From assembly GCA_963701165.1 (NCBI GenBank), contig OY969571.1, forward strand, positions 1,102,599-1,166,598: a DNA stretch of 64,000 bases, written 5' to 3'. Shown here piece by piece: positions 4,701 through 36,148 of this stretch (position 1 is the stretch's first letter; each line of letters starts with the position of its first letter). Under the pieces are notes generated by a model. That model was not told where the DNA came from. It ran no database searches and worked only from the letters and a program-made list of their open reading frames with translations. Origin of the DNA: an uncultured Actinomycetes bacterium (GTDB lineage Bacteria > Actinomycetota > Thermoleophilia > Solirubrobacterales > 70-9). The position numbers and the translations under genes are program-made.

Positions 4701-6247
4701 AGCACGTTCTCCAGCTGTTCGCGGGAGAGATCATGGAAAGGCTGGGTGGCAGTCACAAGCCGCTCGACCTCGCCGACCTCCCACTCGTCCAGCGCCGCCA
4801 TCGAGACCAGGTGCTGGGCGAGGACGTCGAGCGGGTTCTGCGGGATCGTCGTCTCCTCGATTTCGGCCTCGCGCATGCGGCGGGCGACGACTGCGCACTC
4901 GAGCAGGTCGCCGCGGTATTTGGGGAAGATCCGGCCCTTGGAGACTTCGCCCATGCGGTGGCCGGCGCGGCCGATCCGCTGCAGGCCGCGGGTCACCGAC
5001 TTCGGCGACTCGACCTGGATCACGAGGTCGACGGCCCCCATGTCGATCCCCAGCTCCAGCGAGGAGGTGGCGACCAGGCAGGGGAGTTCGCCGGACTTGA
5101 GCATCTCCTCGACCACGGTTCGCTCCTCGTGGGAGAGGGAGCCATGGTGGGCGCGGGCGATCTCGACGTAGGCATCCGGGCCGGCGGGTCCTGTCCCCGA
5201 TTTGGAACCACCATCCCTATCGGGATGGTCCCCCAAATCGGCGCCACCCCCCGGCAGGGGCGCATGACCGAGCTGCTCCGTTGCCGGAAGCTCAGATTCC
5301 CCTTCGCCGTTAGCGAGCTCGTTCATTCTCTTCGCTAGCCGCTCCGCCGCTCGGCGGTTGTTGACGAAGATCATCGTCGAGGTGTGTTCCTGGACCAGCT
5401 CCAGAAGCTTGGGGTAGATCGCCGGCCAGATCGAGCGCACGTGGGCGCTGGGCTCGATTTCGGTAGGCGGCGGCCCGTCCTCACTGGGATACGCCGGCGC
5501 CCCCGGATCGGCCATGTCCTCGACCGGCACCACGATCTCCAGGTCCAGAGCCTTCTTCTGCCCGGCATTGACGATCCGGCACTGCTTCTTCGACCCGACG
5601 AGGAACTGGCCTATCCGCTCCAGCGGCCGCTGGGTCGCCGAGAGACCTATCCGCTGGATCTCTTCCCCACCCGCGTTCTTCACGTGGTGGCCGAGTCGCT
5701 CCAGGGTCAAGGCGAGATGGCTGCCCCGCTTGGACTGGGCGACGGCGTGGATCTCATCCACGATCACTGCCTCAACGCCGGTGAGGATGTCGCGGACGCT
5801 GGAGGAGAGCATCAGGTAGAGCGACTCGGGCGTGGTGATGAGGATGTCCGGCGGCGTTTTCGCCATCGCCCGCCGTTCTTTCTGCGAGGTGTCGCCGGTG
5901 CGCAGACCGACGGCGATCTCGGCGCCGATCCCGCGCAGCGGCGCCCGCAGGTTGCGCTCGATGTCGTAGGAGAGCGCTTTCAGCGGCGAGATGTAGACGA
6001 GCTTGACCCCGGTCCCGAGCGAATCCGACCGCGCCAGCTTGTCGATCCCCCAGAGGAAGCTGGCCAGCGTCTTCCCCGACCCGGTCGGGGCGCAGATCAG
6101 CGCGTGCTCGCCGCTGGAGATCGCCTCCCAGCCGCCGGCCTGAGCGGGGGTCGGGCCTTCGAAGGAAGCCTCGAACCAGCGTCGCGTCGCGTCGCTGAAC
6201 GGCGCCAGCGGATCAGATTCCACACTCGTTTTCGCCTTGGAAGCCAA
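1706..6247 (-). CDS. lhr: ATP-dependent DNA helicase Lhr (large helicase-related protein, superfamily 2)
   Basis: 1513 aa, typical Lhr size. Motif I is CAPTGSGKT, motif II is VDEIH, motif III is LSAT and motif VI is QRIGRAGH. A long C-terminal extension is present. The apparent start is TTG at 6247. Confidence 0.9.
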   Translation of the reverse strand: MASKAKTSVESDPLAPFSDATRRWFEASFEGPTPAQAGGWEAISSGEHALICAPTGSGKTLASFLWGIDKLARSDSLGTGVKLVYISPLKALSYDIERNLRAPLRGIGAEIAVGLRTGDTSQKERRAMAKTPPDILITTPESLYLMLSSSVRDILTGVEAVIVDEIHAVAQSKRGSHLALTLERLGHHVKNAGGEEIQRIGLSATQRPLERIGQFLVGSKKQCRIVNAGQKKALDLEIVVPVEDMADPGAPAYPSEDGPPPTEIEPSAHVRSIWPAIYPKLLELVQEHTSTMIFVNNRRAAERLAKRMNELANGEGESELPATEQLGHAPLPGGGADLGDHPDRDGGSKSGTGPAGPDAYVEIARAHHGSLSHEERTVVEEMLKSGELPCLVATSSLELGIDMGAVDLVIQVESPKSVTRGLQRIGRAGHRMGEVSKGRIFPKYRGDLLECAVVARRMREAEIEETTIPQNPLDVLAQHLVSMAALDEWEVGEVERLVTATQPFHDLSREQLENVLDMLDGRYPSDRFAELRPRIVWDRTEGTIHGRKGARQLVVTNAGTIPDRGLFGVHLPDGRRVGELDEEMVYEARAGQTFLLGSSTWRIEEITRDRVIVTPAPGAPGAVPFWKGDGIGRPAELGRAIGAFAREAVNREPAELAKEYDLDERAANNLVSYLREQQQATRVVPSDETIVVERFRDEIGDWRLCILSPYGGRVHSAWGLALAAKIRAERDLEADAIWSDDGIVIHLPDADEPPSADMVLIDPGEIEDLIVSELSGSALFGARFRENASRSLLIPRAYPGKRTPLWQQRLKSQSLLEVARDFPRFPVILETYRECLQDVLDLPSLRDLLGKLHSRALSLVEVETPTASPFASSLLFDYVATYMYEGDTPNAERRAAALALDRDLLRELLGQEELRELIDPEALEEVEAQLQNRTEAGRAGDRDALQQLLRNLGDLTAEECEERVAEGYSAKSMLEKLVAERRVAKVRVVGEERYIAAEDAGLYRDALGVPEPPGLPETFLEEHPDAMRALVRRYARTHGPFPTQQLTARYGVDPLPPLRELESEGAMVRGELLPGGTEREWCDAEVLRRVRRSSLARLRKEVEAADTRELARFLPSWQNVDAFRRTGAGIDRLREALVPLQGVALTPKVWEGDVLPRRLGAYSQSWLDELCTSGELVWVGAGALGRNDGRVALYFREDVHLAGPPPANAKLETPQGEVHDAIRERLAAGPSFWLDLAFDLDHPAEDIHNALWDLAWTGAVTNDAFAPLRAPRLRAVPPSERPGRRFGRRRSTTGAAVQGRWSLTEPLFANAPGPGAKLRAQAELMLERYGIVTRETVLAEGIPGGFSTLYGELGNLELLGTARRGYFVEGLGGAQFALPGAVERLRSLPQADGSYLVLAATDPANPYGASLPWPKLEGGRRPGRTPGAHLLLRDGEPLVFVERGGRGLLRLVPLQDKDLEEAMRALADAVAAGQLPKLAVEKLDGEAIIGSGHEEALVGAGFSRGPRKLTASA

Positions 6248-6348
6248 CCCACCGATCTTACGCAGGTCGGTACGTCGCCCAACCGACGATTGATGAGTTG
6301 ACCACGCTATAGGCGGGTTAACTCATCAATCGCGGCTCAAATATGGGG

Positions 6349-7494
6349 CTAGGGCGTGCCGTCGGTGAGCTTGACGAATTCGAACCAGGACTTGCGGGGC
6401 ACGAAGCCGGGGGCGAAGAGGCCCGAGTGGCTGCAGAAGTTGCAGGCGCCGGGGGCGTCGTCGACCGAGAACCAGAAGACGCTCTTCACCTTCCATTTCA
6501 CCTGCTTGTTGCGGAACGTAGTCAGCGAGGTCTTCAGTTCGCGCGCCTGACCGGCGGGGCCCTTGGCGAAGAGGTTGCCGCTGCTCTTCGGACCGGCGCT
6601 CCAGCCGAGCTCGGTGATCCAGAGCGGCTTGCCGCCGTCTTTGTTCTCGGCCAGGACGTTGCGGAATTCTTCGGTGACTTCCGGCAGTTCCCGGGCGTTG
6701 ATCGTGTACGGGTGCAGAGCGGCGCCGCTGTACCTGGTCTTCAGCCCCGGAGTCGTCTTGTACATCTGCTCGAGGAAGTCGCTCGCGTACCAGTTGAGGC
6801 TTTTGTGTTTGCCGGCGGCGTTGCGGGCGCCTTTCGGCCGGGCGAAGAGGCCGGCGAGGACGACCTGCGCCCCCGGGTCGGCCGCCTTCAGCGCCGTGTA
6901 GGAGATCTTCACCAGCTTTCCGTACTCGGCCGGGTTGGGCTTGGCGATGAAGTACTTGAAGTTCGGCTCGTTCCAGATCTGCCAGGACCGGATCGGTCGT
7001 TGCGGGATGCCGGGGTGCTCGGACCAGAAACTGCCGCTGGGCCCGTAGCGAGCAACGGCGGCGGTCATGAAGGCCGCCCAACCGGTGCGCGCGGCGCCGC
7101 TGACCGGCAGATACGCCGGGGTGAGCAGCCCGCCCGCTCCCGAAACCTTCTTGGTGGGGACGGCCCATTCCGGGGCGCCGGAGAGGAAGGGGAGCACTTT
7201 GATGCCCGCTTTCGCGGCCTCTTCCACCTGGCTGTCGAAGCTTCTCCAGTCGAAGGCGCCGCCCTTGACCGTCTGCACCGAGCCCCAGCCGACCGGGATG
7301 CGGATGCTTTCGGCGCCACCGTTGCCGAGACGCTGATACTGCTCGGCGCTGAGGTTGCTCTGCGGCACGACGCCCCAGAAGCCGGCCGGCAACGCCTGCG
7401 CGGCCGAGGCGAAGATCGTGAAAACCGCGGCGAGGGCTCCAAGGGCCGTCCAGGCGCGCACCATTCTCGTCAATTTCCCGCTCGCTTTCGGCAT
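6349..7494 (-). CDS. Secreted clan GH-A-like (beta/alpha)8 glycoside hydrolase, paralog 1 of 3
   Basis: Signal peptide ...AAVFTIFASAAQA. WQIWNEPNF matches the NEP acid/base motif and WITELGW matches the nucleophile Glu motif. Paralogs lie at 56111..57231 and 58361..59434. Confidence 0.6.
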   Translation of the reverse strand: MPKASGKLTRMVRAWTALGALAAVFTIFASAAQALPAGFWGVVPQSNLSAEQYQRLGNGGAESIRIPVGWGSVQTVKGGAFDWRSFDSQVEEAAKAGIKVLPFLSGAPEWAVPTKKVSGAGGLLTPAYLPVSGAARTGWAAFMTAAVARYGPSGSFWSEHPGIPQRPIRSWQIWNEPNFKYFIAKPNPAEYGKLVKISYTALKAADPGAQVVLAGLFARPKGARNAAGKHKSLNWYASDFLEQMYKTTPGLKTRYSGAALHPYTINARELPEVTEEFRNVLAENKDGGKPLWITELGWSAGPKSSGNLFAKGPAGQARELKTSLTTFRNKQVKWKVKSVFWFSVDDAPGACNFCSHSGLFAPGFVPRKSWFEFVKLTDGTP

Positions 7495-7497
7495 CGG

Positions 7498-8073
7498 TCA
7501 GCCCGCCTTCGGCGAGGAGACGGTGGAACCGGGGTCCTGGCGACGCTGGCGGTAGTAGAAGTAGCCGATCGAGATCGCCGCGAGTACGGCCACCGCGATC
7601 AGAATCGGCACCAGCGGCGAGGAGCCGCCGTCCGACGAGTCGCCGGCGGAGTCCGCCGTGGTTGGCAGCGGCTGCGCGGCATTGATGCTCCCGTCGCCTG
7701 CATTCTGGGAGCCATTGCCGGCCTTCTGGCCGCCGCCGCCCCCGGCTTGGTTACTCTGGCCGCTCGGGGGGCCACCGCCTCCGCCGGAATTGTCGCTCCC
7801 GCCGGGAACAGCAGCGCCCGGCGTATCCGACTTCGAAGCTTCGGATTCGGATTCCGACGGAGCATCGGTACCGCCGGACTTGTGTTTCGACGGAATATTG
7901 GAACCTTGGTCATTGGGCACGGCCGGTACGTCAGTTTCGTACTGGATTCCGCTGTTTTCTTCAGCTTGAGCCAGACCCGGAAAGCAAGCAATTGCCAGCA
8001 CAGCAAGCACTGACAGAAGCGCGAAAACAGGTCGGGCCGAGCTACGGTCGCGGGGGAGGCGGGTCCGAGGCAT
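7498..8073 (-). CDS. Secreted Ser/Gly/Asp-rich low-complexity protein with a C-terminal membrane anchor
   Basis: Signal peptide MPRTRLPRDRSSARPVFALLSVLAVLAIACFPGLAQA. A long S/G-rich middle is followed by the TM helix LVPILIAVAVLAAISIGYFYY and a basic tail. The stop is 3 nt upstream of the GH start. The start is uncertain (8073 or 8097; the ORF extends to 8304). Confidence 0.45.
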   Translation of the reverse strand: MPRTRLPRDRSSARPVFALLSVLAVLAIACFPGLAQAEENSGIQYETDVPAVPNDQGSNIPSKHKSGGTDAPSESESEASKSDTPGAAVPGGSDNSGGGGGPPSGQSNQAGGGGGQKAGNGSQNAGDGSINAAQPLPTTADSAGDSSDGGSSPLVPILIAVAVLAAISIGYFYYRQRRQDPGSTVSSPKAG

Positions 8074-11488: not shown

Positions 11489-12361
11489 ATGCCCGAGCTC
11501 GAGGTCGTGATCGTCAGCCACGGCGCCGAAGCGCTGCTGCGGCGCTGCCTGCGTTCGCTGCAGGAGCACCCGATCACCGAGGGCGAGATGCGGGTCACCG
11601 TCGTCGACAGCGGCAGCCCCGACGGGACGCCGGACATGGTCGCGCGCGAGTTCCCCCAGGTGCGGCTGCTGCGGCGGGACAACATCGGCTTCTCCGCCGC
11701 CAACAACGTTGTCCTGCGCGAGGACGAGGCGGGCGCGGTGCTACTGCTCAATCCCGACACCGAGGTCTATGCGGGAACCCTCGACGCGGCGCTGGCGCGA
11801 CTGCGCTCGGACCCCACGATCGGGATGGTCGGGGTGAAGCTGGTGACCGAAAACGGTGAGCTCGACCACGCCTGCAAGCGCTCCTTCCCCACCCCGCTCT
11901 CGGCCCTGGCCCACTTCACCGGGATCGGTCGCGGCGAAGGTGCCGGCGAGGCGCTGAGCCAGTACCGCGCCACCCAGTTGGGCGACGACGAGCCGGGCGA
12001 GGTCGACGCGGTCAACGGCGCCTTCATGCTCTGCCGCGCCGCGGCGGTTCAGGACGTCGGCCTGCTCGACGAGGGCTACTGGCTCTACATGGAGGACCTC
12101 GACTGGTGCCACCGCTTCTGGGACGCCGGCTGGAAGGTCTTCTACGAGCCGGCCGGGGTGGCGCTGCACGTCAAGGGCGGCTCCAGCGCCTCGCGCCGGG
12201 GCCTCAAACAGGAGATCGCTTTTCACCGCGGCATGGGGCGCTTCTACCGCCGCTTCGACGCGCCGCAGAGCAACCCGCTGCTGAACGCAGCGGTCTACGC
12301 CGGGATCGGGGCCAAGCTCGGGGTCAGCCTGGCGATCACGGCCTACAAGCGAACGAGGTAG
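11489..12361 (+). CDS. Family 2 glycosyltransferase (rhamnosyltransferase-like)
   Basis: LEVVIVSHGAEALLRRCL...VVDSGSPDGT...NIGFSAANN...GAFMLCR...LYMEDLDWCHR, the typical GT2 (GT-A) core. Confidence 0.8.
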   Translation: MPELEVVIVSHGAEALLRRCLRSLQEHPITEGEMRVTVVDSGSPDGTPDMVAREFPQVRLLRRDNIGFSAANNVVLREDEAGAVLLLNPDTEVYAGTLDAALARLRSDPTIGMVGVKLVTENGELDHACKRSFPTPLSALAHFTGIGRGEGAGEALSQYRATQLGDDEPGEVDAVNGAFMLCRAAAVQDVGLLDEGYWLYMEDLDWCHRFWDAGWKVFYEPAGVALHVKGGSSASRRGLKQEIAFHRGMGRFYRRFDAPQSNPLLNAAVYAGIGAKLGVSLAITAYKRTR

Positions 12362-13149
12362 GCGTCCTGGAGGACGACCTGGCTCGGCGAGCCGAGGTCG
12401 AAGCGGCGCACCTCGGAGAAGGAAGCGAGCAGCTCCTCTTCGACGTAGGGGCGCGGGTGATAGACGGTGCAGAGGTTGCGACCCGCCATCCGCGGCCGCT
12501 GCACGACCATCTCACCGCAGTCGAAGCGCTGCTGCTCATCGAGGCTGAGCCGGTGGCGCATGCGCTCGCCGAGGACGCTCAGTACCAGCAGCCCGCCGGG
12601 GCGCAGCAGGCGCCGGAACTCGGCCAGCCAGCCCCGCTGCAAGACCTCGTCGAGATGGCTGAACACGGAGAGGGCGTAGACGAGGTCGAAGCTGCCGGTG
12701 ACGTACGGGGTCGGCGGGGCCAACTGGTTGCGGGTCGCCCGAAGGTTCGGCAGGTTGGCGACGCACCAGGCGACGAGGTCGGGGTTGTAGTCGCAACCGT
12801 AGATCTCCAGCCCCTCAACCGCCGCCCAATGACGGGCGACCCGGCCGCAACCGCAGCCGAAGTCGAGGATCGCCCGCATCCGCTCGACCGGGGCCCCAGC
12901 CGCCGCAGCCCCCGCCTGGATCGAGTCGCACATCTGCGCCCCGAGCCGGAGGAAGGCCTCGGCATCGCCGGTACGGCCGTCGACCAGCAGGCGCAGGCGT
13001 GGCGGCGGCACCGGTAACCCGTCGGCGCCAAGGGCCTCCCGCTCATGGGCGCGGTGGGCGAGCCATCCCTCGCGCAGCCGCTCGGCGGGCAAGAGCAGCC
13101 TGGTCCGGTCGAGCCTGTCGGCAATCTGACTCCGCGTCTGCTGGCGCAT
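12343..13149 (-). CDS. Class I SAM-dependent methyltransferase
   Basis: Motif I is ILDFGCGCGRVARHW, with later LVYALSVFSHL and LLRPGGLLVLSV. An ATG at 13149 is preferred over the ORF-track GTG at 13200. The 3' end overlaps the convergent GT2 gene by 19 nt. Confidence 0.7.
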   Translation of the reverse strand: MRQQTRSQIADRLDRTRLLLPAERLREGWLAHRAHEREALGADGLPVPPPRLRLLVDGRTGDAEAFLRLGAQMCDSIQAGAAAAGAPVERMRAILDFGCGCGRVARHWAAVEGLEIYGCDYNPDLVAWCVANLPNLRATRNQLAPPTPYVTGSFDLVYALSVFSHLDEVLQRGWLAEFRRLLRPGGLLVLSVLGERMRHRLSLDEQQRFDCGEMVVQRPRMAGRNLCTVYHPRPYVEEELLASFSEVRRFDLGSPSQVVLQDAYLVRL

Positions 13150-13197
13150 CCCATCGGTTTCAACCTCTTTAGAGGGGGAAAGTCGCGGCACTGCAGT

Positions 13198-13292
13198 CAC
13201 CGCTTTGGGGACGCCGGCTGGGAGATCTTCTACACCGTGATCGGGGCGAAGCTCGGGTCAGCCTGGCGATTACCGCGCTTCGCGGCCGCTAG
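13198..13292 (+). pseudogene. Decayed remnant of a GT2 gene 3' end (paralogous to 12110..12361)
   Basis: CACCGCTTTGGGGACGCCGGCTGGGAGATCTTCTAC... and ...GATCGGGGCGAAGCTCGGGTCAGCCTGGCGATTACC align to CACCGCTTCTGGGACGCCGGCTGGAAGGTCTTCTAC and GATCGGGGCCAAGCTCGGGGTCAGCCTGGCGATCAC of the intact gene. The remnant has an internal deletion and a 1-nt indel. Confidence 0.55.
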
Positions 13293-13534
13293 GCCACAGC
13301 GCGGCGGCTCCAAAGCGCGCCGCGAACCTTCTTCAACTCGACGACCTTGCCGAGGTCGTTCTTGATCCGAACCTCGCCGCCGCCCTCCCTGCGCACCATT
13401 GCCCGAGCCTTCTTCACGGCTCCTGATCGCGTTTCGTCGAACTCGGATGCGCGCCTACTACCGGCTCTTACGATCTCCCAACCGCCGAGACGCTTACTTG
13501 GCTGCACGCTGCGATCTGCGGTTCGAGTCTCCAT
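13289..13534 (-). CDS. Small DUF2188-like protein
   Basis: 81 aa from the ATG at 13534. GGWEIVRAGSRRASEFDETRSGAVKKARAMVRREGGGEVRIKNDLGKVVE has the DUF2188 pattern as I recall it. Lies in a lower-GC stretch. Confidence 0.5.
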   Translation of the reverse strand: METRTADRSVQPSKRLGGWEIVRAGSRRASEFDETRSGAVKKARAMVRREGGGEVRIKNDLGKVVELKKVRGALWSRRAVA

Positions 13535-13583
13535 TGCGACGAAGATAGCCGGCTCTCCGGCGGATCCCACCTTCACCGGTTCC

Positions 13584-14582
13584 TCAGCCCCCACATGCCA
13601 GCGGATGCGTCGAGGAGTCGAAGAAGAACAAGGGCGCGTCCAGACCGGCGCGAATGGTCGCCTTGGCCGCACGGATGTCGTTCTCGCTTTTTCCCTCACG
13701 CCGAATCGAAACGGCGACCGCCCGCGAGGGGTTGCGATTCAGCGCGTCTACGAGGTGCTGGTCCTGCTCACCCAGGTCGCTCCCGAAGACCACCATCGGG
13801 AGATCGCACTTGCCCAGCTGGTCAAGCGCGTGGGAAAGATAGTCGTTGCCCTCGATTCCCTGCAGCTTGTGCTGCGCCGAGCCCTCGGTGATCAGAAGCG
13901 GCCGGACCTGCTCGTCGCCGTCCAACGGCTTGCCGAACTGATCGAGCAGCGTCCTGAGGTTCTGGTGCACGAGCTTGCGGGTCGCGCCAGACCCCATAAC
14001 CACCAGGTGGAGCGCTCCGTGGAGGAAGTAGACCGGAGTTCGATGCGCGGGGACGTCGCACTCTGCGGGGTCGAAGGAGCTCTTCTCACACCAGAAGCAA
14101 TCGCATAGGCCCTTGAAACCCACGGCGTGCATCGCCCAGTAGACGATGAGGTCGTAGTTGGTGGAGAACACGTACTCCTGCTCCTGCAGGGTCCGGCCAA
14201 TTGTCTCGAGCGTGTCGCCCGAAACACTCGAGTGCTTGACATGCACGGCCTGGACAGCCTTGCCAAGGGCCAGCTGAACGCTCTTGTAGCGGTCCAGGTA
14301 GGGGCCGGAGTCCTTGCCGAGAGCCTCCGCCATGCGAATGGCGGAGGCAAGCTCTCCCAATACTCGCTCGAAGTTCTTGGTGCCCAGCTCTTCGAAGAGG
14401 TTTCGGTCGGGGGTCGTGAGAGCGCCGGCCTTGTCGAACAGCGAGGGGTAGCCGAAGCCCTCCCACACATTCCTGCTCAGACCATTGCCCAGCAGAAGAG
14501 CAGACCAGTCGTCGCGTTCGGCGGTCACCTCCTCCCAGCGGGCGAGGCTCCCGTCGATCGGATGCCCATCTGCGACCGTCAC
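13584..14582 (-). CDS. SIR2-like (DUF4917/SIR2_2-type) protein, candidate NAD-utilising enzyme
   Basis: LLLGNGLS sits at the Rossmann-loop position. FSTNYD supplies the Asn and YFLHGALHLV supplies the His. A GTG start at 14582 follows GAGGG, 8 nt after the rmlC stop. Lower GC than the rml genes. Confidence 0.55.
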   Translation of the reverse strand: MTVADGHPIDGSLARWEEVTAERDDWSALLLGNGLSRNVWEGFGYPSLFDKAGALTTPDRNLFEELGTKNFERVLGELASAIRMAEALGKDSGPYLDRYKSVQLALGKAVQAVHVKHSSVSGDTLETIGRTLQEQEYVFSTNYDLIVYWAMHAVGFKGLCDCFWCEKSSFDPAECDVPAHRTPVYFLHGALHLVVMGSGATRKLVHQNLRTLLDQFGKPLDGDEQVRPLLITEGSAQHKLQGIEGNDYLSHALDQLGKCDLPMVVFGSDLGEQDQHLVDALNRNPSRAVAVSIRREGKSENDIRAAKATIRAGLDAPLFFFDSSTHPLACGG

Positions 14583-14589
14583 GAAGCCC

Positions 14590-15138
14590 TCAGAAGGGCA
14601 GCGAGTCGGCGGCTTCGGCCAATCGCGGCGCAACCTTGTCGCGCTCGCTCAGCAGCGGGTCGCTGACCTGCCACTCGATGCCGATCTCGGGGTCGTCCCA
14701 GGCGATCCCGGACTCGGTCGCCGGGTCGTAGTAGCTGGACACCTGGTAGGCGACGTCGGCCGTCTCGCTGAGGACGGCGAAGCCGTGGCCGAAGCCGACC
14801 GGGACGAAGAGCTGGCGGTGCTTGACGTCGTCGAGCAGGTGCGCCTCCCACTGCCCGTAGGTGGGCGAGCCGCGACGCAGGTCGACGGCGACGTCGAGGA
14901 TCTCGCCGCGGGCGCAGCGGATCAGCTTCGCCTGCCCAGGCTCGGTCTGGAAGTGGATCCCGCGCAGCGTCCCCTTCGAGGAGCGCGAGTGGTTGTGCTG
15001 GACGAACTCGACCTCGACCCCGAGCTGGCGCCAGGCGTCGCGGCTGTAGGACTCGAGCATGAAGCCACGCTCGTCGCCGTGGACGACCGGCTCGACCAGG
15101 ACCACCCCTTCGAGCTTCGTCTCCAGCCGCTCCGCCAC
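14590..15138 (-). CDS. rmlC: dTDP-4-dehydrorhamnose 3,5-epimerase
   Basis: LEGVVLVEPVVHGDERGFMLESY...GTLRGIHFQ...KLIRCARGEILDVAVDLR...YYDP, the typical RmlC cupin. Confidence 0.9.
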   Translation of the reverse strand: MAERLETKLEGVVLVEPVVHGDERGFMLESYSRDAWRQLGVEVEFVQHNHSRSSKGTLRGIHFQTEPGQAKLIRCARGEILDVAVDLRRGSPTYGQWEAHLLDDVKHRQLFVPVGFGHGFAVLSETADVAYQVSSYYDPATESGIAWDDPEIGIEWQVSDPLLSERDKVAPRLAEAADSLPF

Positions 15139-15141
15139 TAG

Positions 15142-16125
15142 CTAGCCCAGTGCCTTCCCGTACTGCTTTTCGTAGTACTCGCGGTACTCGCCGGAGCGGA
15201 TCGGGCCCCACCAGTCCTCGTTGTCGCGATACCACTGGACGGTTCGCTCGAGGCCCTCGGCGAAGTGGACCTGGGCCTCCCAGCCGAGCTCCTCCTTCAG
15301 CTTCGCCGAGGAGAGCGAGTAGCGGCGATCGTGGCCTGGGCGGTCTTTGACGTATTCGATCAGCGACTCGTCGCCGCCGGTCAGCTCGATCACCCGCTTG
15401 ACGACCTCGATGTTCTCGCACTCGTCGGGACCGCCGACGTTGTAGGCCTCGCCCGCCACGCCCTTGGTCAGCACCGTGTGGATGCCGCTGCAGAAGTCCT
15501 CGACGAAGAGCCAGTTGCGGACCTGCTTGCCGTCGCCGTAGACCGGCAGCGAGTCGCCGTGGACTGCGTTGAGGACCATCAGCGGGATCAGCTTCTCGGG
15601 ATATTGGCGCGGGCCGTAGTTGTTGGAGCCGCGGACGATCGAGGCGTCGATCCCGTAGGTGTGGAAGTGGGCGGAGACGAGCAGGTCGCCGGCGGTCTTG
15701 GTCGCCGAGTAGGGCGAGGAGGGGTCGAGCGGCGAGGTCTCGGTGAAGGAGCCGGAGTCGATCGAGCCGTAGACCTCGTCGGTGGAAACCTGCAGGTAGC
15801 GCTCGACCCCGAGCTCGCGGGCGGCGTCGAGCAGGGTGCCGGTGCCGATCACGTGGGTGCGGGCGAAGGCGTCCTGGTCGTCGATCGAGCGATCGACGTG
15901 ACTCTCGGCGGCGAAGTTGACGACCGCGTCGACGCCCTGCATCGCCTCGCGGACGACGGCGGGATCCTCGATCGCTCCCTCGATCAGGTTCGTCCCCTCG
16001 GGCAGGTTCTCGCGCCGGCCGGCGTAGGTGAGCTTGTCGAGGACGACGACGTCGTGCTCGTCGCCGACCAGTCGCACATAGGTGGAGCCGATGAAGCCGG
16101 CGGCGCCGGTGACCAGGAGTTTCAT
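15142..16125 (-). CDS. rmlB: dTDP-glucose 4,6-dehydratase
   Basis: MKLLVTGAAGFIGS...STDEVYG...PYSATKTAGDLL...DRPGHDRRY. The ATG at 16125 overlaps the rmlD stop (ATGA). Confidence 0.92.
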   Translation of the reverse strand: MKLLVTGAAGFIGSTYVRLVGDEHDVVVLDKLTYAGRRENLPEGTNLIEGAIEDPAVVREAMQGVDAVVNFAAESHVDRSIDDQDAFARTHVIGTGTLLDAARELGVERYLQVSTDEVYGSIDSGSFTETSPLDPSSPYSATKTAGDLLVSAHFHTYGIDASIVRGSNNYGPRQYPEKLIPLMVLNAVHGDSLPVYGDGKQVRNWLFVEDFCSGIHTVLTKGVAGEAYNVGGPDECENIEVVKRVIELTGGDESLIEYVKDRPGHDRRYSLSSAKLKEELGWEAQVHFAEGLERTVQWYRDNEDWWGPIRSGEYREYYEKQYGKALG

Positions 16126-16973
16126 TCGCTTGCTGCCTCCGCTTTTCGTTGGGCGAGATAGCCTGCCAGGCCGTCCTGCCAGGTGGGGAGCCGGATCGCG
16201 TGCTCGCGCTGGCTGACCAGGGCCGAGAAGGCGGGCCGGGGAGCGGGCCGGCCGAGCATCTCGGTCGTGCTCGAGAGGACTTTGCACTCGACCTCGGCCT
16301 GCTCGAAGATCTCGCGGGCGAACTCGTACCAGGAGCAGTGGCCGCCCGCCGCCATGTGGTGGATGCCGTACTCCATGCCGTCGATCAGGCGGACGATCCC
16401 GTAGGCGAGGTGCCAGGTGTAGGTCGGCGAGGTGGACTGGTCGCGGACGACGAGGACCTCGTTCCGGGTCTCGGCCAGCTGCAGCATCGTCTCGACGAAG
16501 TTGCGGCCGCCGAGCCCGAAGAGGCCGGCCGAGCGGACGATGAAGTGGCGCTTGTTGGCAGCGGCGACCGCCTCCTCCCCGGCCAGCTTGGTGCGGCCGT
16601 AGGCCGACTGCGGCGCCACCTGGTCGCTCTCCACGTAGGGCGCGCCCTTGCTGCCGTCGAAGACGTAGTCGGTGGAGACGTGGAGGATCCGCGCTTCGAT
16701 CTCGGCCGCAGCCGCGGCGACGTTGCCGGCGCCCGAGCCGTTGACGGCGAAGGCCGCCTCCTCGGACTCCTCGGCGCCGTCGACGTCGGTCCAGGCGGCG
16801 CAGTTGATGACCACGTCGGGCCGCTCGAGGTCGAGCTTGCGGCGGACCGCGGCGGGGTCGGAGACGTCGAACTCGGCGCGGCCGTAGCCGATCACGTCGT
16901 GGCCGGCGTTGCCGGCGGCGAGGAGGACGTCGCGGCCCAGCATCCCGGCGGCCCCGGTGACGAGCAACTTCAT
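16122..16973 (-). CDS. rmlD: dTDP-4-dehydrorhamnose reductase
   Basis: MKLLVTGAAGMLGRDV...VINCAAWTDVDGAE...STDYVFDG...YGRTKLAGE. Confidence 0.9.
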   Translation of the reverse strand: MKLLVTGAAGMLGRDVLLAAGNAGHDVIGYGRAEFDVSDPAAVRRKLDLERPDVVINCAAWTDVDGAEESEEAAFAVNGSGAGNVAAAAAEIEARILHVSTDYVFDGSKGAPYVESDQVAPQSAYGRTKLAGEEAVAAANKRHFIVRSAGLFGLGGRNFVETMLQLAETRNEVLVVRDQSTSPTYTWHLAYGIVRLIDGMEYGIHHMAAGGHCSWYEFAREIFEQAEVECKVLSSTTEMLGRPAPRPAFSALVSQREHAIRLPTWQDGLAGYLAQRKAEAASE

Positions 16974-17075: not shown

Positions 17076-17750
17076 CTAAGCGGATGACTGCGACTTCACC
17101 AATGAGACCGCCGCGCTGACGAAAAGCAAGACAGCGCCCACGAAGCAGACGAGTGCCGCGGTTCCGATACCCGCAATCAAAAGGATGACCCCGATCATCA
17201 ATGCCGCCAAGGCGAACACGCCATGCCGAAACGCTCTCCGAGCGCGGCGGCCGCTCTCTCCTATCGCTCGCCTCGTAAGCCCGGCGGTCTGCTCGGCAAG
17301 GTCGGTTGCCGTTTTCGCTGCAGCGACTCGGCTCGCAGTCGACAAACCGTGGAAGGCCCCGTCGATTTCGCTGCGCGTCCGCGCGGCGCTGACCTGATCC
17401 TTTGCCGCTGCGCACTCATGCGCTTCCAACCGCCCTTCGGCATACGCCTTCTCGAGCAGGCCGATTGCCTCTGCGCGATCCGGCGCAGAAACCCGGCGCT
17501 CGGTTGATGGAGAGCGGGCGGGGAGCGTGGGGAGACCCGCGATGGCAAAGACCTCCCCGATTTGATTTGGCGTCGCGGCCGCCTCCACGGCCGCGTAGAG
17601 CCCCGGAAGCTCGTCCTGATCAAGATGCCCCATTGATCGATGCGCCTCGAGGCGGCGAAAGGCGTCCTCGCGATCGGCGTTTGATGCGCGGAATTCCCCG
17701 CGTTGAAGCTTGCGACCCTTGACCCGCATCAATCCGATTCGGTCGAGCAT
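17076..17750 (-). CDS. DUF1707 (SHOCT-like) domain membrane protein
   Basis: Two R-x-S/A-x-x-DRE-type modules are present (RASNADREDAFRRLEAHRSMGHLDQDEL and RVSAPDRAEAIGLLEKAYAEGRLEAHE), followed by two C-terminal TM helices. Lower GC. It sits between rmlA and rmlD. Confidence 0.55.
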   Translation of the reverse strand: MLDRIGLMRVKGRKLQRGEFRASNADREDAFRRLEAHRSMGHLDQDELPGLYAAVEAAATPNQIGEVFAIAGLPTLPARSPSTERRVSAPDRAEAIGLLEKAYAEGRLEAHECAAAKDQVSAARTRSEIDGAFHGLSTASRVAAAKTATDLAEQTAGLTRRAIGESGRRARRAFRHGVFALAALMIGVILLIAGIGTAALVCFVGAVLLFVSAAVSLVKSQSSA

Positions 17751-17831: not shown

Positions 17832-18911
17832 TTAGACGAGTTTGATCTCGGATTTGTCGCCGACCAGCAGCCGCAGGGTCTTCGGCATTCCCTCGCTGCG
17901 GGTCAGCTTCACTTCCTTGCCGAGCAGGCTCGCCTCCATCCGCGTGCCGAGGTCCTCGACCACGGAGCCGGAGAGGACGATCGAGTTCTCGACTTCGGAT
18001 CGGCGGACGTGGACGTCGTCGCCGATCGAGGTGTAGGGGCCGATGTAGGCGTCCTCGATGTGGGCGCCGGCGCCGATCACGGCGGGGCCGCGGACGACGG
18101 CGCGCTCGAGCCGGGCGCCGGGGCCGATCACGACCCGGCCCTCGACCTTGGAGGCCTCGTCGACCTCGCCCTCGATCTCGGTCACCAGCTCCTCCAGCAC
18201 GAGGCGGTTGGCCTCGAGCATGTCGGCGAGCTGGCCGGTGTCCTTCCACCAGCCGCGCACCACCTCGGAGCGGACGGTGCGGCCGTCGTCGATCAGCTTG
18301 TCGATCGCCTCGGTGATCTCCAGCTCGCCGCGCCAGGAGGGCTCCAGGGAGCGGGCGGCGTCGAAGATCGAGTTGCTGAAGAGGTAGACGCCGACCAGGG
18401 CGAGGTTCGAGGGCGGGTCCTTGGGCTTCTCGATCAGGCGCACGATGTGGCCGTCGTCGTCGAGCTCGGCGACGCCGTAGGACTGCGGGTCGTCGACCGG
18501 GGTGAGGAGGATCAGCGCCTCGGGCTGGTGCTCGCTGAAGGTGGAGACGAGGCCGCGGAGGCCGTCGCGGAGGAGGTTGTCGCCGAGATACATGACGAAC
18601 GGCGAGGTGCCGATGAACTCCTCGGCGGTCAGCACCGCGTGGGCGAGGCCGGCCGGTTTGTCCTGGACGATGTAGGTGATCTCGGCGCCGAACTGCGAAC
18701 CATCGCCGGCCGCTTCGCGGATCTCGTCCCCGGTCTCGGGGGCGATGATGATCCCGATCTCCTTGACCCCGGCGTCGACCAGCGCCTCGATCCCGTAAAA
18801 GAGCACGGGCTTGTTGGCGACGGGCACCAGTTGCTTCGCCGAGGTGTGGGTGATCGGGCGCAGGCGCGTGCCGGCACCACCCGAGAGAATCAGTCCCTTC
18901 AAGGGCTCCAT
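17832..18911 (-). CDS. rmlA: Glucose-1-phosphate thymidylyltransferase (long form, about 359 aa)
   Basis: MEPLKGLILSGGAGTRLRPITHTSAKQLVPVANKPVLFY from the ATG at 18911, with a C-terminal left-handed beta-helix region. The 108 codons upstream in the ORF track are Arg/Pro-rich and non-coding in appearance. Confidence 0.9.
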   Translation of the reverse strand: MEPLKGLILSGGAGTRLRPITHTSAKQLVPVANKPVLFYGIEALVDAGVKEIGIIIAPETGDEIREAAGDGSQFGAEITYIVQDKPAGLAHAVLTAEEFIGTSPFVMYLGDNLLRDGLRGLVSTFSEHQPEALILLTPVDDPQSYGVAELDDDGHIVRLIEKPKDPPSNLALVGVYLFSNSIFDAARSLEPSWRGELEITEAIDKLIDDGRTVRSEVVRGWWKDTGQLADMLEANRLVLEELVTEIEGEVDEASKVEGRVVIGPGARLERAVVRGPAVIGAGAHIEDAYIGPYTSIGDDVHVRRSEVENSIVLSGSVVEDLGTRMEASLLGKEVKLTRSEGMPKTLRLLVGDKSEIKLV

Positions 18912-19006
18912 GCGGGAGGGAACCCTACTGACAGTCGATAAGAGCGGCTGTTGCAGCAATGTTGCCGCACCTGGACTCGATCCGGCGAATCCGCGACCAT
19001 GGAGCC

Positions 19007-19477
19007 ATGAGCAAGGTGGACGAGCGCGCATTCGTGCCCGAGATCGACGCGGACGCCCGGCACCGGCTGAGCGTGGCGCTGGACAAGGAGGGCGTCGTCG
19101 CCGCGATGCTGATCGGGTCGCAGGCGCGGGGAGAAGCGGGACCTCTTTCGGACGTGGACGTCGCGGTCTGGCACGAGCCCGCCCTCGACTCGGATCAACG
19201 CTGGACTCTCCACCTGTCTCTGATAGGTGCCGCAACTCAGGCCCTGAAGACGGATGAGGTCGATGTCGTCATGCTGAATCACGCTCCCCCGTTGCTCAAG
19301 CATCGGGCTATCCGGGACGCGGTGCTGCTGGTAGAGCATGACCACGCCCAGCGGGTGAGCTTCGAGACGAGGGCGATCCTCGACTACCTCGACACTGCAC
19401 CCCTTCGGGTGGCGCGGAGAGAAAGTCTCGAGCGGCAATTCAAGGATGGAACTTTTGGTCGACGCCGATCGGGTTGA
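19007..19477 (+). CDS. mntA: MNT-type nucleotidyltransferase antitoxin (type VII TA)
   Basis: GSQARGEAGPLSDVDVAV matches GS-x(n)-DxD. An ATG at 19007 is preferred; the ORF opens at 18959. Confidence 0.75.
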   Translation: MSKVDERAFVPEIDADARHRLSVALDKEGVVAAMLIGSQARGEAGPLSDVDVAVWHEPALDSDQRWTLHLSLIGAATQALKTDEVDVVMLNHAPPLLKHRAIRDAVLLVEHDHAQRVSFETRAILDYLDTAPLRVARRESLERQFKDGTFGRRRSG

Positions 19478-19868
19478 GCTACGCCTCGAACGGCTGGGCC
19501 AGCTGATCGATCAGCTGGACAACGTCCAAGCTGGAGGGGAAAAGGCCTACCTGGACAACCCGGAACTCCGGGCTGCCGCCGAACGATGGCTGGAGCTTGC
19601 GATCCAGATTTGCATCGACCTGGGAACCCAGCTTGCGGTTCAACGGGGAGGCCCGATACCGGAAAGCTATGCCGAGGTCTTCACCATCCTGCAGAAGCAG
19701 GGACTAGTACCCGACCACTTGGCGTTGTCTTTGGCTGCTGCGGCAGGTCAGCGAAATCTCCTCGCCCACCTCTACCTGGAGATCGACGACAAGAAGGTCT
19801 TCGAGTCCCTCTCCAACCTCGACCGTCTACGCCAGTTTGGCGCGCTCGTCGAGAACCAGCTCGACTGA
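19446..19868 (+). CDS. hepT: HepT (DUF86) RNase toxin
   Basis: QRNLLAHLY matches R-x4-H-x-Y. The protein is 140 aa and helical, and overlaps mntA by 32 nt. Confidence 0.8.
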   Translation: MELLVDADRVELRLERLGQLIDQLDNVQAGGEKAYLDNPELRAAAERWLELAIQICIDLGTQLAVQRGGPIPESYAEVFTILQKQGLVPDHLALSLAAAAGQRNLLAHLYLEIDDKKVFESLSNLDRLRQFGALVENQLD

Positions 19869-33419: not shown

Positions 33420-34673
33420 CTAAGCGATGTCGGCCACCGGCCGCCGACGATCCTGCTCCTGTGAAGGCACTTGCCCTCCGCTCTTCTCGGGAACTCTGAG
33501 CAAGACCGTCGATAAGACGACCGCCGCATCGATGGCCGCATAAAGGAGCACCAGGTTCCTCGTCACGATGGTAATCGCGGTGGCCTGGACGACTCCAGCG
33601 GTGAGCACAGCCGCAACGACGGTCAGCCAGGCGGCGCGGGCGATGCGGGTGCGGCGGGAGGAAAGCACGACAGCACTGAGGCCGACCAGCCAGATCATGT
33701 ACTGGGGGCTGAGGACCCGGCTGACGATCACGAACAGGAGGGTCACGGTGAAAACGAAGTCGCGACTCAGCGCGACGTCCTTCAGGTCCTCGCGGCCAGC
33801 GCGGATACCTCGATCCCGCAGTCGCCACCAGACCGCCGCGCCGGCGAGGACGAGGAAGGCGGCGACGTCGAGGGCTTTCGCGACGGCATCGCCCAAGCCG
33901 GAAGCGATCTCGTTCGAGCCGTAGCGGGCAATCAGGAACTGCCCTTCCCCGGTGACGACCTCGCGCAGTTTCCAGGGGAGCGCCCCGACCGATTCCACCT
34001 GCAGGCCCCGCTCTCCCTGATGGCCGAGGAATCCGAACGGATCGCTGAGGAGGATCGCAACGACGGCGAAGATCGCAGCGATGCTCGCGGCGGCGGCGCC
34101 CGCCGAGCGCAGCAGCCGTTCTCGATCCCACTCGCCGAAGAGTAGGAAGATCGGCCAGACCTTGATCGCCGCGCCGACGCCCGCCAGGACCCCGAACCAG
34201 CCGGGCCGGCGGTGAATCACGAGCAGTCCGGCCATCGCCAGCACGGTCGGAACTAGGTCGAAGCGCAGCAGCGGCATCCCGCCCCACGACTGGATGCCGG
34301 CAAGCAGGGGCATCGCCAGCAGCCAGATCCAGACCCCGGCGTCGCGCCGTCCCTCCTTCGCGAACCTGGTCATCAGCCAGAAGCCGACGAGGTCGATCAC
34401 CAGCATCATGACCATGAAGGAGAGGTCGAACTCCGCCCAGCTGAGCCGGGGCGCCAACATCACGAAGGCCGCCCCCGGGGGGTACTGCCAAAGCTCTTCG
34501 TTCGGCAGCCCTCCGGTTTCGACCATGAACTGCGACCACTCGTGGTAGAGGACGACGTCCTGGTACTGCGGACCGCTGGGAAGCCAGAACCCGACCTGCA
34601 CGATCATCAGGGCGCGGGTCAGGACCCAGACGGCAATCCAGATCGGAAGTTTGAACCTGGTCGCGAAGGGCAT
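33420..34673 (-). CDS. GT87/DUF2029-like glycosyltransferase, tandem paralog 3 (more diverged)
   Basis: The ATG at 34673 gives MPFATRFKLPIW. QDVVLY, WQYPPGAAFVMLAP and SPQYMIW are present. Confidence 0.6.
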   Translation of the reverse strand: MPFATRFKLPIWIAVWVLTRALMIVQVGFWLPSGPQYQDVVLYHEWSQFMVETGGLPNEELWQYPPGAAFVMLAPRLSWAEFDLSFMVMMLVIDLVGFWLMTRFAKEGRRDAGVWIWLLAMPLLAGIQSWGGMPLLRFDLVPTVLAMAGLLVIHRRPGWFGVLAGVGAAIKVWPIFLLFGEWDRERLLRSAGAAAASIAAIFAVVAILLSDPFGFLGHQGERGLQVESVGALPWKLREVVTGEGQFLIARYGSNEIASGLGDAVAKALDVAAFLVLAGAAVWWRLRDRGIRAGREDLKDVALSRDFVFTVTLLFVIVSRVLSPQYMIWLVGLSAVVLSSRRTRIARAAWLTVVAAVLTAGVVQATAITIVTRNLVLLYAAIDAAVVLSTVLLRVPEKSGGQVPSQEQDRRRPVADIA

Positions 34674-34738
34674 CCCGAAGGCGGCAGATTGGCAGATTTG
34701 CGCAGACACGTGGGCGATCCCCGGGCTGGGCGCGCGAC

Positions 34739-34795
34739 AATATATAGATTGATATCCCTCTTATTAATTAGTCAAACACAATTAGGCGAACTGTC
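34739..34795. promoter_or_regulatory. AT-rich island in the divergent intergenic region between GT87 paralog 3 and the matrixin gene; probable divergent promoter/regulatory region
   Basis: aatatatagattgatatccctcttattaattagtcaaacacaattagg stands out sharply against the GC-rich flanks. AAGGAG (34806..34811) and a TTG start at 34821 follow. Confidence 0.4.
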
Positions 34796-34820
34796 GCCAC
34801 TCGCAAAGGAGAGAAGAGAC

Positions 34821-36148
34821 TTGGAAAATGCCAAGCGAGTAACCCGCTACTGCGCCGGGCTGGGTGCCTTGGTGTGCCTTTTGCTGCCAGCAACCGCAGC
34901 GGCCGCCCCAAAGAAGGTGCCTTATGACGATCTGCCGCTACCGATTCAGCCGAGCTTCGTCGGCGTTTCAAAATGGAACCACCTTGATGTGACTTACGGG
35001 TTCGTAAATGGGACGGCTGACATTGCCGGGGATGGTGAGCGCCAAGCCGTCAAAGAAGCGTTTGCCCTATGGAGCGCGAGCTCACCGTTGTCCTTCGCGG
35101 AAACCAGCCCCGTCAGCGCCGACATAGAAATCAGCTGGGGCACGGGTGAACACGGGGACGGCTTTCCATTCGACGGAACCGGCGGCATACTCGCTCACGC
35201 GTTTTATCCATCAGACGGTCGAATCCACTTCGATGATGCGGAGACCTGGACTACGGCCACTCGCAGCAACTCCGCCGATCCGCGTGATCTGGTCACGGTC
35301 GCCGCTCACGAGATCGGGCACGCGATTGGCCTGGGCCACTCGGTCGACTCCTCAGCCTTGATGTACGAATTTTATTCGGGCAGCCATCGCTTCCTGGCTA
35401 ACGACGACATCGAAGGAATCGCCTCTCTATACCCCACTCGATGGCGCCTGAGAAACACTGCCAGCTCCGGATCGGTGGATGTAGAATTCGATTTTGGCGA
35501 GAGCGGGAACAAGTTCGTCTCCGGTGACTGGGACGGCAACGGCACGCGCACGCTCGGCACCTACAACCCGTCCTCGGGGGTTTGGAAGCTGCGCAATACC
35601 AACAGCGGGGGAACGCCGGACATCACCTTCCAGTTCGGCGGTGGGCCTGGAACCGCGCCATCGCCGGCGACTGGAATGGCGACGGGATCGACACCATCGG
35701 CGTCTTTGACCCGACCAACGGCAACTGGAACCTCCGCGACTCGAACAGCGCCGGCGGGGCCAACCACGCCTTCCAGTATGGGGGCAGCCCGTGGACGAGC
35801 GCGGTGGTCGGAGACTGGAACGGCGACGGGACGGACACCATCGGCGTCTACGACCCCAGCGCTGGCAACTGGAATCTGCGCGACTCGAACAGTGCCGGCG
35901 GAGCAAATCACGCGTTCCAGTACGGAGGGGGACCCTGGACCACTCCTATTGTCGGCGATTGGGACGGCAATGGGACCGACACCATCGGAGTGTACGACCC
36001 GAGTGCAGGCAACTGGAATCTGCGTGATGCTAACAGCGGCGGCAGTCCGAAATATTCGTTCCAGTACGGCGGAGGTGTATGGAACCGAGCCGTGACCGGC
36101 GACTGGGATGGCAACGGGACCGACACCATCGGAGTGGTGCGCGACTGA
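34821..36148 (+). CDS. Secreted matrixin-family (M10) zinc metalloprotease fused to five FG-GAP/VCBS-like 48-aa repeats; frame broken by one apparently missing base at 35646..35647
   Basis: TTG start after AAGGAG. Signal peptide ...LVCLLLPATAAAA. HEIGHAIGLGHS is the zinc site and ALMY is the Met-turn. The repeats GDW[DN]G[DN]GxDTIGVYDPSxGNWNLRDSNSAGG...FQYGG.PW continue in frame 2 (track ORF 35582..36148). The junction FQFGGG|PWNRAIAGDW is restored if CC is CCC. Confidence 0.75.
35523..36145 (+). repeat. Tandem coding repeat, 4.3 units of 144 bp (48 aa)
   Basis: Unit starts were verified at 35523, 35666 (143 bp after the first, i.e. one base short), 35810, 35954 and 36098. Each begins GG(N)GA(Y)TGG. 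Confidence 0.85.

Follow-up and report, generated by a model that had tools for sequence, protein, structure and literature searches.

The window analysed here is a 64,000-nucleotide (nt) stretch of high-GC DNA (GC 0.694) from an uncultured Actinomycetes bacterium (GenBank assembly GCA_963701165.1, contig OY969571.1, positions 1,102,599 to 1,166,598), and its nearest relatives are metagenome-assembled genomes of the order Solirubrobacterales. Directly behind rmlC, the final gene of the native rml operon, the window carries a gene encoding a DUF4917 protein, followed by a gene encoding a small DUF2188 protein. These two genes are a real, conserved and co-inherited two-gene unit, and they form an optional, decay-prone cassette that does not belong to the core rml genes. 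The genes and junctions concerned are:

14590..15138, (-) strand: rmlC, dTDP-4-dehydrorhamnose 3,5-epimerase (Pfam PF00908, E 4e-69)
14583..14592, (-) strand: rmlC-DUF4917 junction, with the TGA stop of rmlC (14590-14592), then GGGCTTC, then the GTG
13584..14582, (-) strand: DUF4917 gene, GTG start, 332 amino acids (aa), pI 5.4, predicted SIR2 fold
13535..13583, (-) strand: spacer of 49 nt from the DUF4917 stop to the DUF2188 ATG, read from the sequence
13289..13534, (-) strand: DUF2188 gene, 81 aa, basic, pI 11.5

The start of the DUF4917 gene agrees with the N-termini of its homologues, and a GAGGG Shine-Dalgarno-like motif overlaps the rmlC stop. The first Met of the DUF2188 protein is invariant in 21 homologues, and in-frame upstream extensions of this gene are not kept among homologues. 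An earlier, sequence-only reading of this DNA had guessed both families and given their coordinates, motifs and strand. Pfam searches and a reading of the sequence showed these to be right, except that the gap between rmlC and the DUF4917 GTG, which had been put at 8 nt, is 7 nt.

A scan of one genome per species revealed a total of 58 loci, nearly all of them from Solirubrobacterales. A DUF2188 gene is located approximately 30-140 bp downstream of the DUF4917 gene in 50 of these 58 genome loci, and a metagenome scan using a broader pattern added 26 further paired loci. The sequence-only reading had proposed looking for co-occurrence of the two genes across genomes; these numbers bear the proposal out and reject the possibility that the pair never co-occurs elsewhere. 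Statements on neighbouring genes are limited here to Pfam-confirmed genes, as the caller of open reading frames (ORFs) is crude in these high-GC loci and mis-called some neighbours.

In a neighbour-joining tree, all paired copies make up one Solirubrobacterales clade. The sister lineages, which also belong to the Solirubrobacterales, and approximately 95 more distant DUF4917 loci have no DUF2188 gene, and Pfam scans of their neighbours agree with this. A few relatives within the paired clade have none either. The DUF2188 gene is co-directional with DUF4917 in 23 of the 50 paired genome loci and convergent in the other 27. Most of the convergent copies are found in one subclade, which indicates that the partner was inverted at least once with the pairing left intact. 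The pairing is also kept across several genomic contexts. Furthermore, the two proteins have diverged in step, with a correlation of r = 0.90 between their pairwise distances (Mantel p = 0.001). A single genome can carry two diverged DUF4917 copies, as exemplified by loci L001 and L044.

Two contigs from viral collections (L189 and L191, 4473-10232) encode hsdS, a DUF2188 protein of 76 aa, DUF4917 and hsdR in a row, at 27% identity. To judge from the sequences, this is an independent association, in which the partner lies upstream and the genes are embedded in a type I restriction-modification (R-M) operon. The arrangement recalls SliP, which adjoins hsdR.

The surroundings of the cassette were compared between relatives. 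The features on its downstream side in the window are:

11489..12361, (+) strand: intact convergent family-2 glycosyltransferase (GT2) gene (Pfam PF00535)
12343..13200, (-) strand: class I S-adenosylmethionine-dependent methyltransferase gene (Pfam Methyltransf_12/25/11)
13198..13292, (+) strand: decayed copy of the GT2 3' end, reading HRFGDAGWEIFY...VSLAITALRGR and then a stop, with an internal deletion and a frameshift

The rml genes, DUF4917, DUF2188 and a convergent GT2 gene were found in this order in eight genome loci (L001-L003, L005-L007, L045 and L048) and in the metagenome loci L064-L066. Where intact, the DUF4917 proteins of these syntenic loci are 65-84% identical to the window copy. 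The upstream border of the slot is rmlC. In relatives its downstream border is the GT2 gene, which is convergent in L001-L007, L045 and L048 and has 82-87% identity there. Six other close relatives, whose RmlC is 87-88% identical, have the same operon without the pair. In L195, L199 and L200 the convergent GT2 gene follows rmlC directly, across a spacer of 46-90 bp with a hairpin. The slot of L196/L197 holds DUF559, a GH42-like gene and a methyltransferase, that of L198 a methyltransferase and a glycosyltransferase, and L201 differs again. The slot behind rmlC is thus variable, since it is empty in three relatives and filled with other cargo in three others, a comparison that does not separate gains of the cassette from losses. 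At the empty site of L199 (4550-4612) lies a perfect inverted repeat of approximately 24 bp, probably a bidirectional terminator, and this spacer is not found where the cassette is present.

Occupied sites are tight. DUF4917 starts approximately 7-20 nt after rmlC, the gap in the relatives being approximately 10-20 nt, and the stops of DUF2188 and GT2 share a CTAG. As this leaves no room for a promoter or terminator at the junction, the cassette is probably transcribed by read-through from the rml operon, which had been a fair proposal of the sequence-only reading. Neither a sigma-70-like promoter nor a terminator was found on the cassette strand, there was no match to an Rfam family, and no repeats flank the cassette. 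Decay was observed in several relatives. The DUF4917 gene of L045 is broken by two insertion sequence (IS) elements (6009-8001; DDE_Tnp_1 and IS1595-type) and that of L052 by an IS3-type element (6403-8001; HTH_Tnp_1 and rve), and the gene is truncated in L048, L050 and L055. DUF2188 is intact in L045, L048 and L052 despite the broken DUF4917.

The cassette also differs from the operon in base composition. DUF4917 and DUF2188 have a GC of 0.635 and 0.634, lower than the 0.67-0.71 of the rml genes, as the sequence-only reading had observed. Their GC at third codon positions (GC3) is 0.82 and 0.72, that of the rml genes 0.94-0.96, and the cassette interval falls within the lowest 3% of 1-kb windows. 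In every syntenic relative, down to 65% identity, the cassette has a GC3 of 0.70-0.88 versus 0.86-0.98 for the rml genes. The GC3 deficit is a standing property of the cassette genes. The idea that the low GC shows a recent horizontal arrival was considered and is rejected by the same deficit in every syntenic relative. The possibility that the pair is a conserved part of rml operons with native GC, which the sequence-only reading had allowed for, is ruled out by the close relatives without the pair together with the low GC3 in every syntenic one.

The decayed GT2 copy was compared with the GT2 C-termini of L001, L003 and L005. As with the intact GT2 gene in relatives, one CTAG tetranucleotide contains part of both its stop and that of DUF2188. 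Two direct repeats, D3 and D7 (12294-12342 versus 13229-13276), are 90-91% identical with a spacing of 934-935 nt. The repeat copies bracket the methyltransferase gene, and the remnant thus records the insertion of the methyltransferase and not the arrival of the pair. The remnant that had been described as bordering the pair is real, but its use as an insertion mark of the cassette was rejected, as the duplication flanks the methyltransferase instead. A methyltransferase follows the pair in L005 and L204 and occurs without the pair in L196 and L198; it is probably part of the glycan cluster and not of the pair.

The 332-aa protein matches Pfam PF16263 (DUF4917) with 135.8 bits against a cut-off of 28 (E 2.9e-39; residues 29-325, profile positions 1-307 of 311), and the PADLOC model PDC-S21 matches it over its full length (E 5.1e-86). 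NCBIfam has no family for this protein or for the DUF2188 protein. Sequence searches of the PDB with the DUF4917 protein, with its profile and with the DUF2188 protein gave nothing significant, so that the kinship to SIR2 is revealed by fold comparison only. An AlphaFold (AF2) model built from 24 homologues has a pLDDT of 82.7 and a pTM of 0.83. Its best Foldseek match is the SIR2 subunit of SIR2-HerA/Nezha (8sub; E 8e-11, TM 0.5-0.58), and further matches are DSR2, KomC, ThsA and classical Sir2. A total of 46 PDB matches had E <= 1e-3, and among the matches listed all are SIR2-domain proteins. The protein is a single domain, with no SLOG and no large C-terminal sensor region.

The motifs LLLGNGLS, STNYD and FLHGALH are present in the protein, and correspond to G32-N33-G34-L-S36, N142-Y143-D144 and H188-G189. 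Among 249 family members G32, N33, G34, S36, Y143, D144, H188 and G189 are invariant or nearly so, and the same is true for E233, K239, D274 and H276. GNGLS (32-36) occupies the position of the glycine-rich NAD-phosphate loop, GAGxS in sirtuins. A profile alignment sets TT[SN]YD and LHG on the FTTNYD and LHG of a SIR2 chain, 8w9l; the alignment is weak alone (E 1.3) and is consistent with the fold match. No Cys4 zinc module, as found in classical deacylase sirtuins, was found, and of six Cys positions none is kept in the family as a whole. The module thus appears from the alignment to be absent, as in immune SIR2s. Taken together, the modelled fold and the invariant GNGxS, YD and HG motifs support a SIR2 kinship of the DUF4917 protein. 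The sequence-only reading had also placed the protein among the SIR2-like proteins, and two of its three hallmarks, the loop and the HG histidine, hold throughout the family.

The third hallmark, an STNYD motif supplying the catalytic Asn, holds for the window protein but not for its own clade. The codons concerned are:

14157-14159, (-) strand: codon of residue 142 of the DUF4917 protein
13845-13847, (-) strand: codon of residue 246 of the DUF4917 protein

The catalytic Asn of the T-x-N-x-D motif, N112 in ThsA and N133 in DSR2, is essential in both of these proteins. N142 is present in the window protein, whereas 65 out of 69 members of the paired clade have Ser at this position, and in the family as a whole Asn and Ser are found there at about 50:50. 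Positions 142 and 246 co-vary over the 249 members (S/N in 114, N/S in 92, N/N in 24 and S/S in 7), a co-variation that is inflated by shared ancestry. Approximately 96% of the sequences have Asn at 142 or 246. The combination in the paired clade is S142/N246; in the window protein both positions are Asn. With S/S in seven sequences only, an Asn is nearly always on offer at one of the two sites. The alignment hints at a move of the Asn from 142 to 246 that would imply an altered active-site chemistry, and the two positions could represent a migrated catalytic residue.

The DUF2188 protein matches Pfam PF09954 with 42.4 bits against a cut-off of 22 (E 7.6e-11, residues 10-64) and the PADLOC model PDC-S16 (E 4.4e-8). 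It has the conserved signature R.V...GW...G..RA...GGGE...GK. It is rich in Lys and Arg, with 21 basic residues out of 81, and its pI of 11.5 contrasts with that of the acidic enzyme. The AF2 model (pLDDT 83.4) predicts three strands, a helix and two strands. Against the PDB the model gave no significant fold match (best E 0.2), and its matches in BFVD are unnamed phage proteins only. No function can thus be read from the fold. In the literature, DUF2188 has been mentioned as defence-linked in CapH/CapP-controlled operons and as a putative Thoeris-associated effector domain. A C-terminal DUF2188 (E 5.5e-20) is also found in a 197-aa protein annotated as antitoxin beside a BrnT-like toxin in Mycobacterium phage prophiT48-1 (L202, 3291-4225), and this toxin has no Pfam match.

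The paired loci are found in several settings. Some are located behind sugar-nucleotide genes in glycan clusters, namely rmlC in the window clade, genes for DegT-type aminotransferases in L008/L010 (the same as L205/L204) and DegT in L022/L036. The main convergent clade has a syntenic site among genes of the leucine-catabolism type (carboxyltransferase, HMG-CoA lyase and acetoacetyl-CoA synthetase). Other paired loci lie beside a PemK-type toxin gene and an integrase, and GmrSD is found upstream of the pair in three paired loci.

The wider DUF4917 family is clearly mobile and defence-associated. Members were found on 36 plasmids, with genes for restriction and toxin-antitoxin systems as neighbours, and on 51 IMG/VR contigs (L144-L194; for example L163, 5433-6951). 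On these contigs a P2-type tail-completion gene, gpS, adjoins DUF4917 in 12, DUF6232 is immediately upstream in ten, and gpV-type baseplate/spike genes are upstream in four. DUF6232 may be a different recurring partner of DUF4917 in P2-like prophages. A PHROG family exists for DUF4917, and no DUF4917 was found in the INPHARED phage genomes. Among 5,426 complete E. coli genomes 36 encode DUF4917, and some of these copies are split by IS1. In these genomes, for example L206 (NZ_CP025950.3, 1939479-1954404), DUF4917 is located between retron Eco8, with its reverse transcriptase and effector, and an ABC-three-component (ABC-3C) system with a restriction endonuclease. The island is mobile and carries ArdC and MobC.

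Upstream of rmlC, the window encodes the following:

15142..16125, (-) strand: rmlB, dTDP-glucose 4,6-dehydratase (ORF; Pfam families on orthologues)
16122..16973, (-) strand: rmlD, dTDP-4-dehydrorhamnose reductase (ORF; syntenic homologues; Pfam RmlD_sub_bind on orthologues)
17076-17750, (-) strand: gene for a DUF1707 (SHOCT-like) and DUF3040 protein, between rmlA and rmlD, GC3 0.71
17832-18908, (-) strand: rmlA
18959-19868, (+) strand: MNT-HepT toxin-antitoxin pair, a nucleotidyltransferase gene (Polbeta/NTP_transf_2, E 4e-14) overlapping a HepT-like HEPN RNase gene (E 1.5e-22)

The ATG of rmlB overlaps the rmlD stop (ATGA), and RmlB is 87-94% identical in the syntenic loci. In L002 and L195-L199 rmlA abuts rmlD, and the site of the DUF1707 gene is thus a second variable slot within the rml operon. 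The MNT-HepT genes are divergent (head-to-head) from rmlA and have a low GC3 (0.76 and 0.72). The lowest-GC stretch of the window is 34000-35250 (0.58-0.63 in 1-kb windows).

The physiological role of the pair may be that of an NAD-consuming conflict module regulated by DUF2188, and we judge the chances of this to be about even. The DUF4917 protein would be a single-domain enzyme of SIR2 fold that binds and consumes NAD+, and the basic 81-aa DUF2188 protein would be its dedicated partner. The cassette, having no promoter of its own, would be transcribed by read-through from the rml operon, and the enzyme would be restrained in normal growth. Upon phage infection or a similar insult, NAD+ would be depleted or diverted, or a target would be ADP-ribosylated, and through this loss or modification the infected cell would stop growing. 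DUF2188 would act as the switch, either as an inhibitor that is released on infection or as a sensor that binds a trigger or ligand. The case for a defence or toxin function of the pair is circumstantial, and we infer NADase activity, a defence phenotype, a physical interaction and the direction of regulation.

A more specific form of this proposal is that the two genes encode a two-component SIR2 immune system that has gone unrecognised. DUF2188 would then be a portable switch that gates the enzyme on binding either a trigger from the phage or a signal derived from NAD or a nucleotide, and the essential Asn would have moved from 142 to 246 in the paired clade. DUF2188 would, in such a system, be the same domain that is also found beside TIR proteins, nucleotide cyclases and the BrnT-like toxin. 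We regard this form as tentative and rather doubtful.

Several observations weigh against a regulated conflict module. Most DUF4917 proteins function without DUF2188, and the partner cannot be co-transcribed where it is convergent, as it is in 27 out of 50 loci. DUF2188 is missing from most of the family and from a few relatives within the clade, which rules it out as an obligatory antitoxin. In 65 of the 69 paired-clade members, Ser stands in place of the Asn on which ThsA and DSR2 depend. Many paired loci, those of the main convergent clade, are located among ordinary metabolic genes and not in defence islands. The window sequence turned up in soil DNA metagenomes only, and read-through is something that we infer. 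No experiment showing phage defence by any DUF4917 or DUF2188 protein was found in the literature searched. Furthermore, the sole characterised member of the family, SliP, has been described as a secreted deacetylase and not as an immune NADase (PMC10421069).

Three other explanations account for parts of the same evidence. The enzyme could be a sirtuin-type NAD-dependent deacylase or an ADP-ribosyltransferase that acts on DUF2188 or on other proteins of the cell, with DUF2188 as its protein substrate or modulator, serving ordinary physiology as a stress or regulatory switch. There is a precedent in sirtuin operons, where SirTM modifies the small carrier GcvH-L encoded next door, and the many Lys and Arg residues of DUF2188, the vertical retention of the pair over a long divergence and the syntenic site of the main convergent clade among metabolic genes would all fit. 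SliP is moreover reported to deacetylate acetyl-lysine peptides with NAD+ (PMC10421069). An ordinary housekeeping role is however difficult to reconcile with a pair that close relatives lack despite having the same operon, that IS elements have broken in places and whose GC3 is persistently deviant, and with a family that occurs on plasmids, in prophages, in a type I R-M operon and in a defence island. The nearest structural matches are immune SIR2s and not deacylase sirtuins, and there is no conserved Cys4 zinc module. We consider the substrate explanation unlikely.

The cassette could also be a selfish, toxin-antitoxin-like addiction element, with a SIR2-like toxin and DUF2188 as its neutraliser, that gives no benefit against phage and is kept by post-segregational killing or linkage. 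Linkage is kept whatever the orientation, as if co-inheritance and not co-transcription were selected, and DUF2188 survives where DUF4917 is broken (L045, L048 and L052). In M. abscessus prophages, a protein labelled as the antitoxin of a BrnT-like toxin contains DUF2188, and the operon region of the cassette also has an MNT-HepT pair, at a distance of 4.4 kb. The prophage label is positional only, though, and the toxin it refers to has no Pfam match. Most DUF4917 proteins, including those of sister lineages of the same order, are without DUF2188, and the enzyme is thus not intrinsically lethal when DUF2188 is missing. This explanation, which we hold to be improbable, overlaps with that of a conflict module, as many toxin-antitoxin systems act in defence. 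Least probable of all, in our view, is a role in the biosynthesis or control of surface glycans, such as an NAD-linked step or a regulator of a rhamnose polymer. Its sole support is the recurrent sugar-operon setting: the pair is found directly behind sugar-nucleotide genes in three separate settings (rmlC in clade A, DegT in the polysaccharide clusters of L008/L010, and DegT in L022/L036), often followed by a methyltransferase (the window, L005 and L204). Accessory DNA is known to gather preferentially in glycan loci. In close relatives the rml and glycosyltransferase genes are present although the pair is missing, the surroundings of most paired loci contain no glycan genes, distant members are found in prophages, plasmids and R-M operons, and the methyltransferase also occurs without the pair.

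Should the pair prove to be a DUF2188-regulated conflict module, its minimal 332-aa SIR2 protein and 81-aa partner would make it the smallest of its kind and well suited as a model for how these enzymes are switched. DUF2188, an orphan domain that is widespread and found repeatedly in defence-like operons, would gain its first function, and the defence biology of the Solirubrobacterales, which are abundant soil Actinomycetota, would become accessible. To our knowledge, no immune system has been studied in this order. If the pair instead consists of a protein-modifying enzyme and its substrate, it would represent a new bacterial sirtuin pathway.

In each known SIR2 system the enzyme works with a different sensor, namely SLOG with TIR, HerA, Argonaute or a large C-terminal domain. 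The SIR2 protein of SIR2-HerA (Nezha) is the best structural match of the DUF4917 protein and has alignable TTNYD and LHG motifs. It, too, consists of a single SIR2 domain and is of similar size, and it depends on a partner protein. It differs in that the partner in the window is an 81-aa DUF2188 protein, and the sequence identity is only 15-17%. No HerA-type helicase gene was found beside the pair in the window, or at the immediate flanks of the related loci scanned. Thoeris ThsA, DSR1/DSR2, Kongming KomC and SPARSA are NAD-consuming immune effectors that have the SIR2 fold in common with the DUF4917 protein. ThsA has a SLOG domain and a TIR partner, whereas the DUF4917 protein has neither, and its neighbours are rmlC and DUF2188; the sole signal to a Thoeris ThsB model was at chance level (0.038) and fell within the SIR2-like protein itself. 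DSR2 is approximately 1,000 aa long with a sensor region of approximately 700 aa, compared to 332 aa in total here, and DSR2 chains align with the DUF4917 model over the SIR2 part only (TMt 0.17-0.19). Kongming and SPARSA differ in that the window cassette has no KomA/B or Argonaute genes.

Effector genes of the prrC type are kept inside type I R-M loci. The hsdS-DUF2188-DUF4917-hsdR order of L189 and L191 is similar to this, whereas the window copy is located outside any R-M locus. Toxin-antitoxin pairs are similar in that an enzyme is linked to a small partner, and different in that here the partner can be convergent and is absent from most of the family. SliP of C. jejuni (Cjj81176_0779) is a DUF4917 protein with a G-N-G motif that is required for its activity; it consumes NAD+ and deacetylates peptides in vitro (PMC10421069). 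It thus has the Pfam family, the motif and the NAD+ use in common with the window protein, and it is hsdR-adjacent like the L189 and L191 genes. It is however very distant and has no reported DUF2188 partner, and its described role is that of a histone deacetylase that is secreted via the flagellum and acts on neutrophils.

The two proteins of the pair also correspond to two PADLOC models, PDC-S21 for DUF4917 and PDC-S16 for DUF2188, which are candidate and not validated models. As both proteins match them, the two families have already been flagged as defence-associated by genomic context. In the literature searched, neither model is named, no test of either candidate is published, and DUF4917 and DUF2188 are not mentioned together. 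The sequence-only reading had called the pair uncharacterised, which is correct in that there is no paper on it, but not for its parts, with both families listed in PADLOC and SliP characterised. The conserved pairing, its restriction to one clade and the Asn shift appear to be undescribed. PADLOC lists two unrelated single-gene candidates, whereas here they are one co-inherited two-gene unit.

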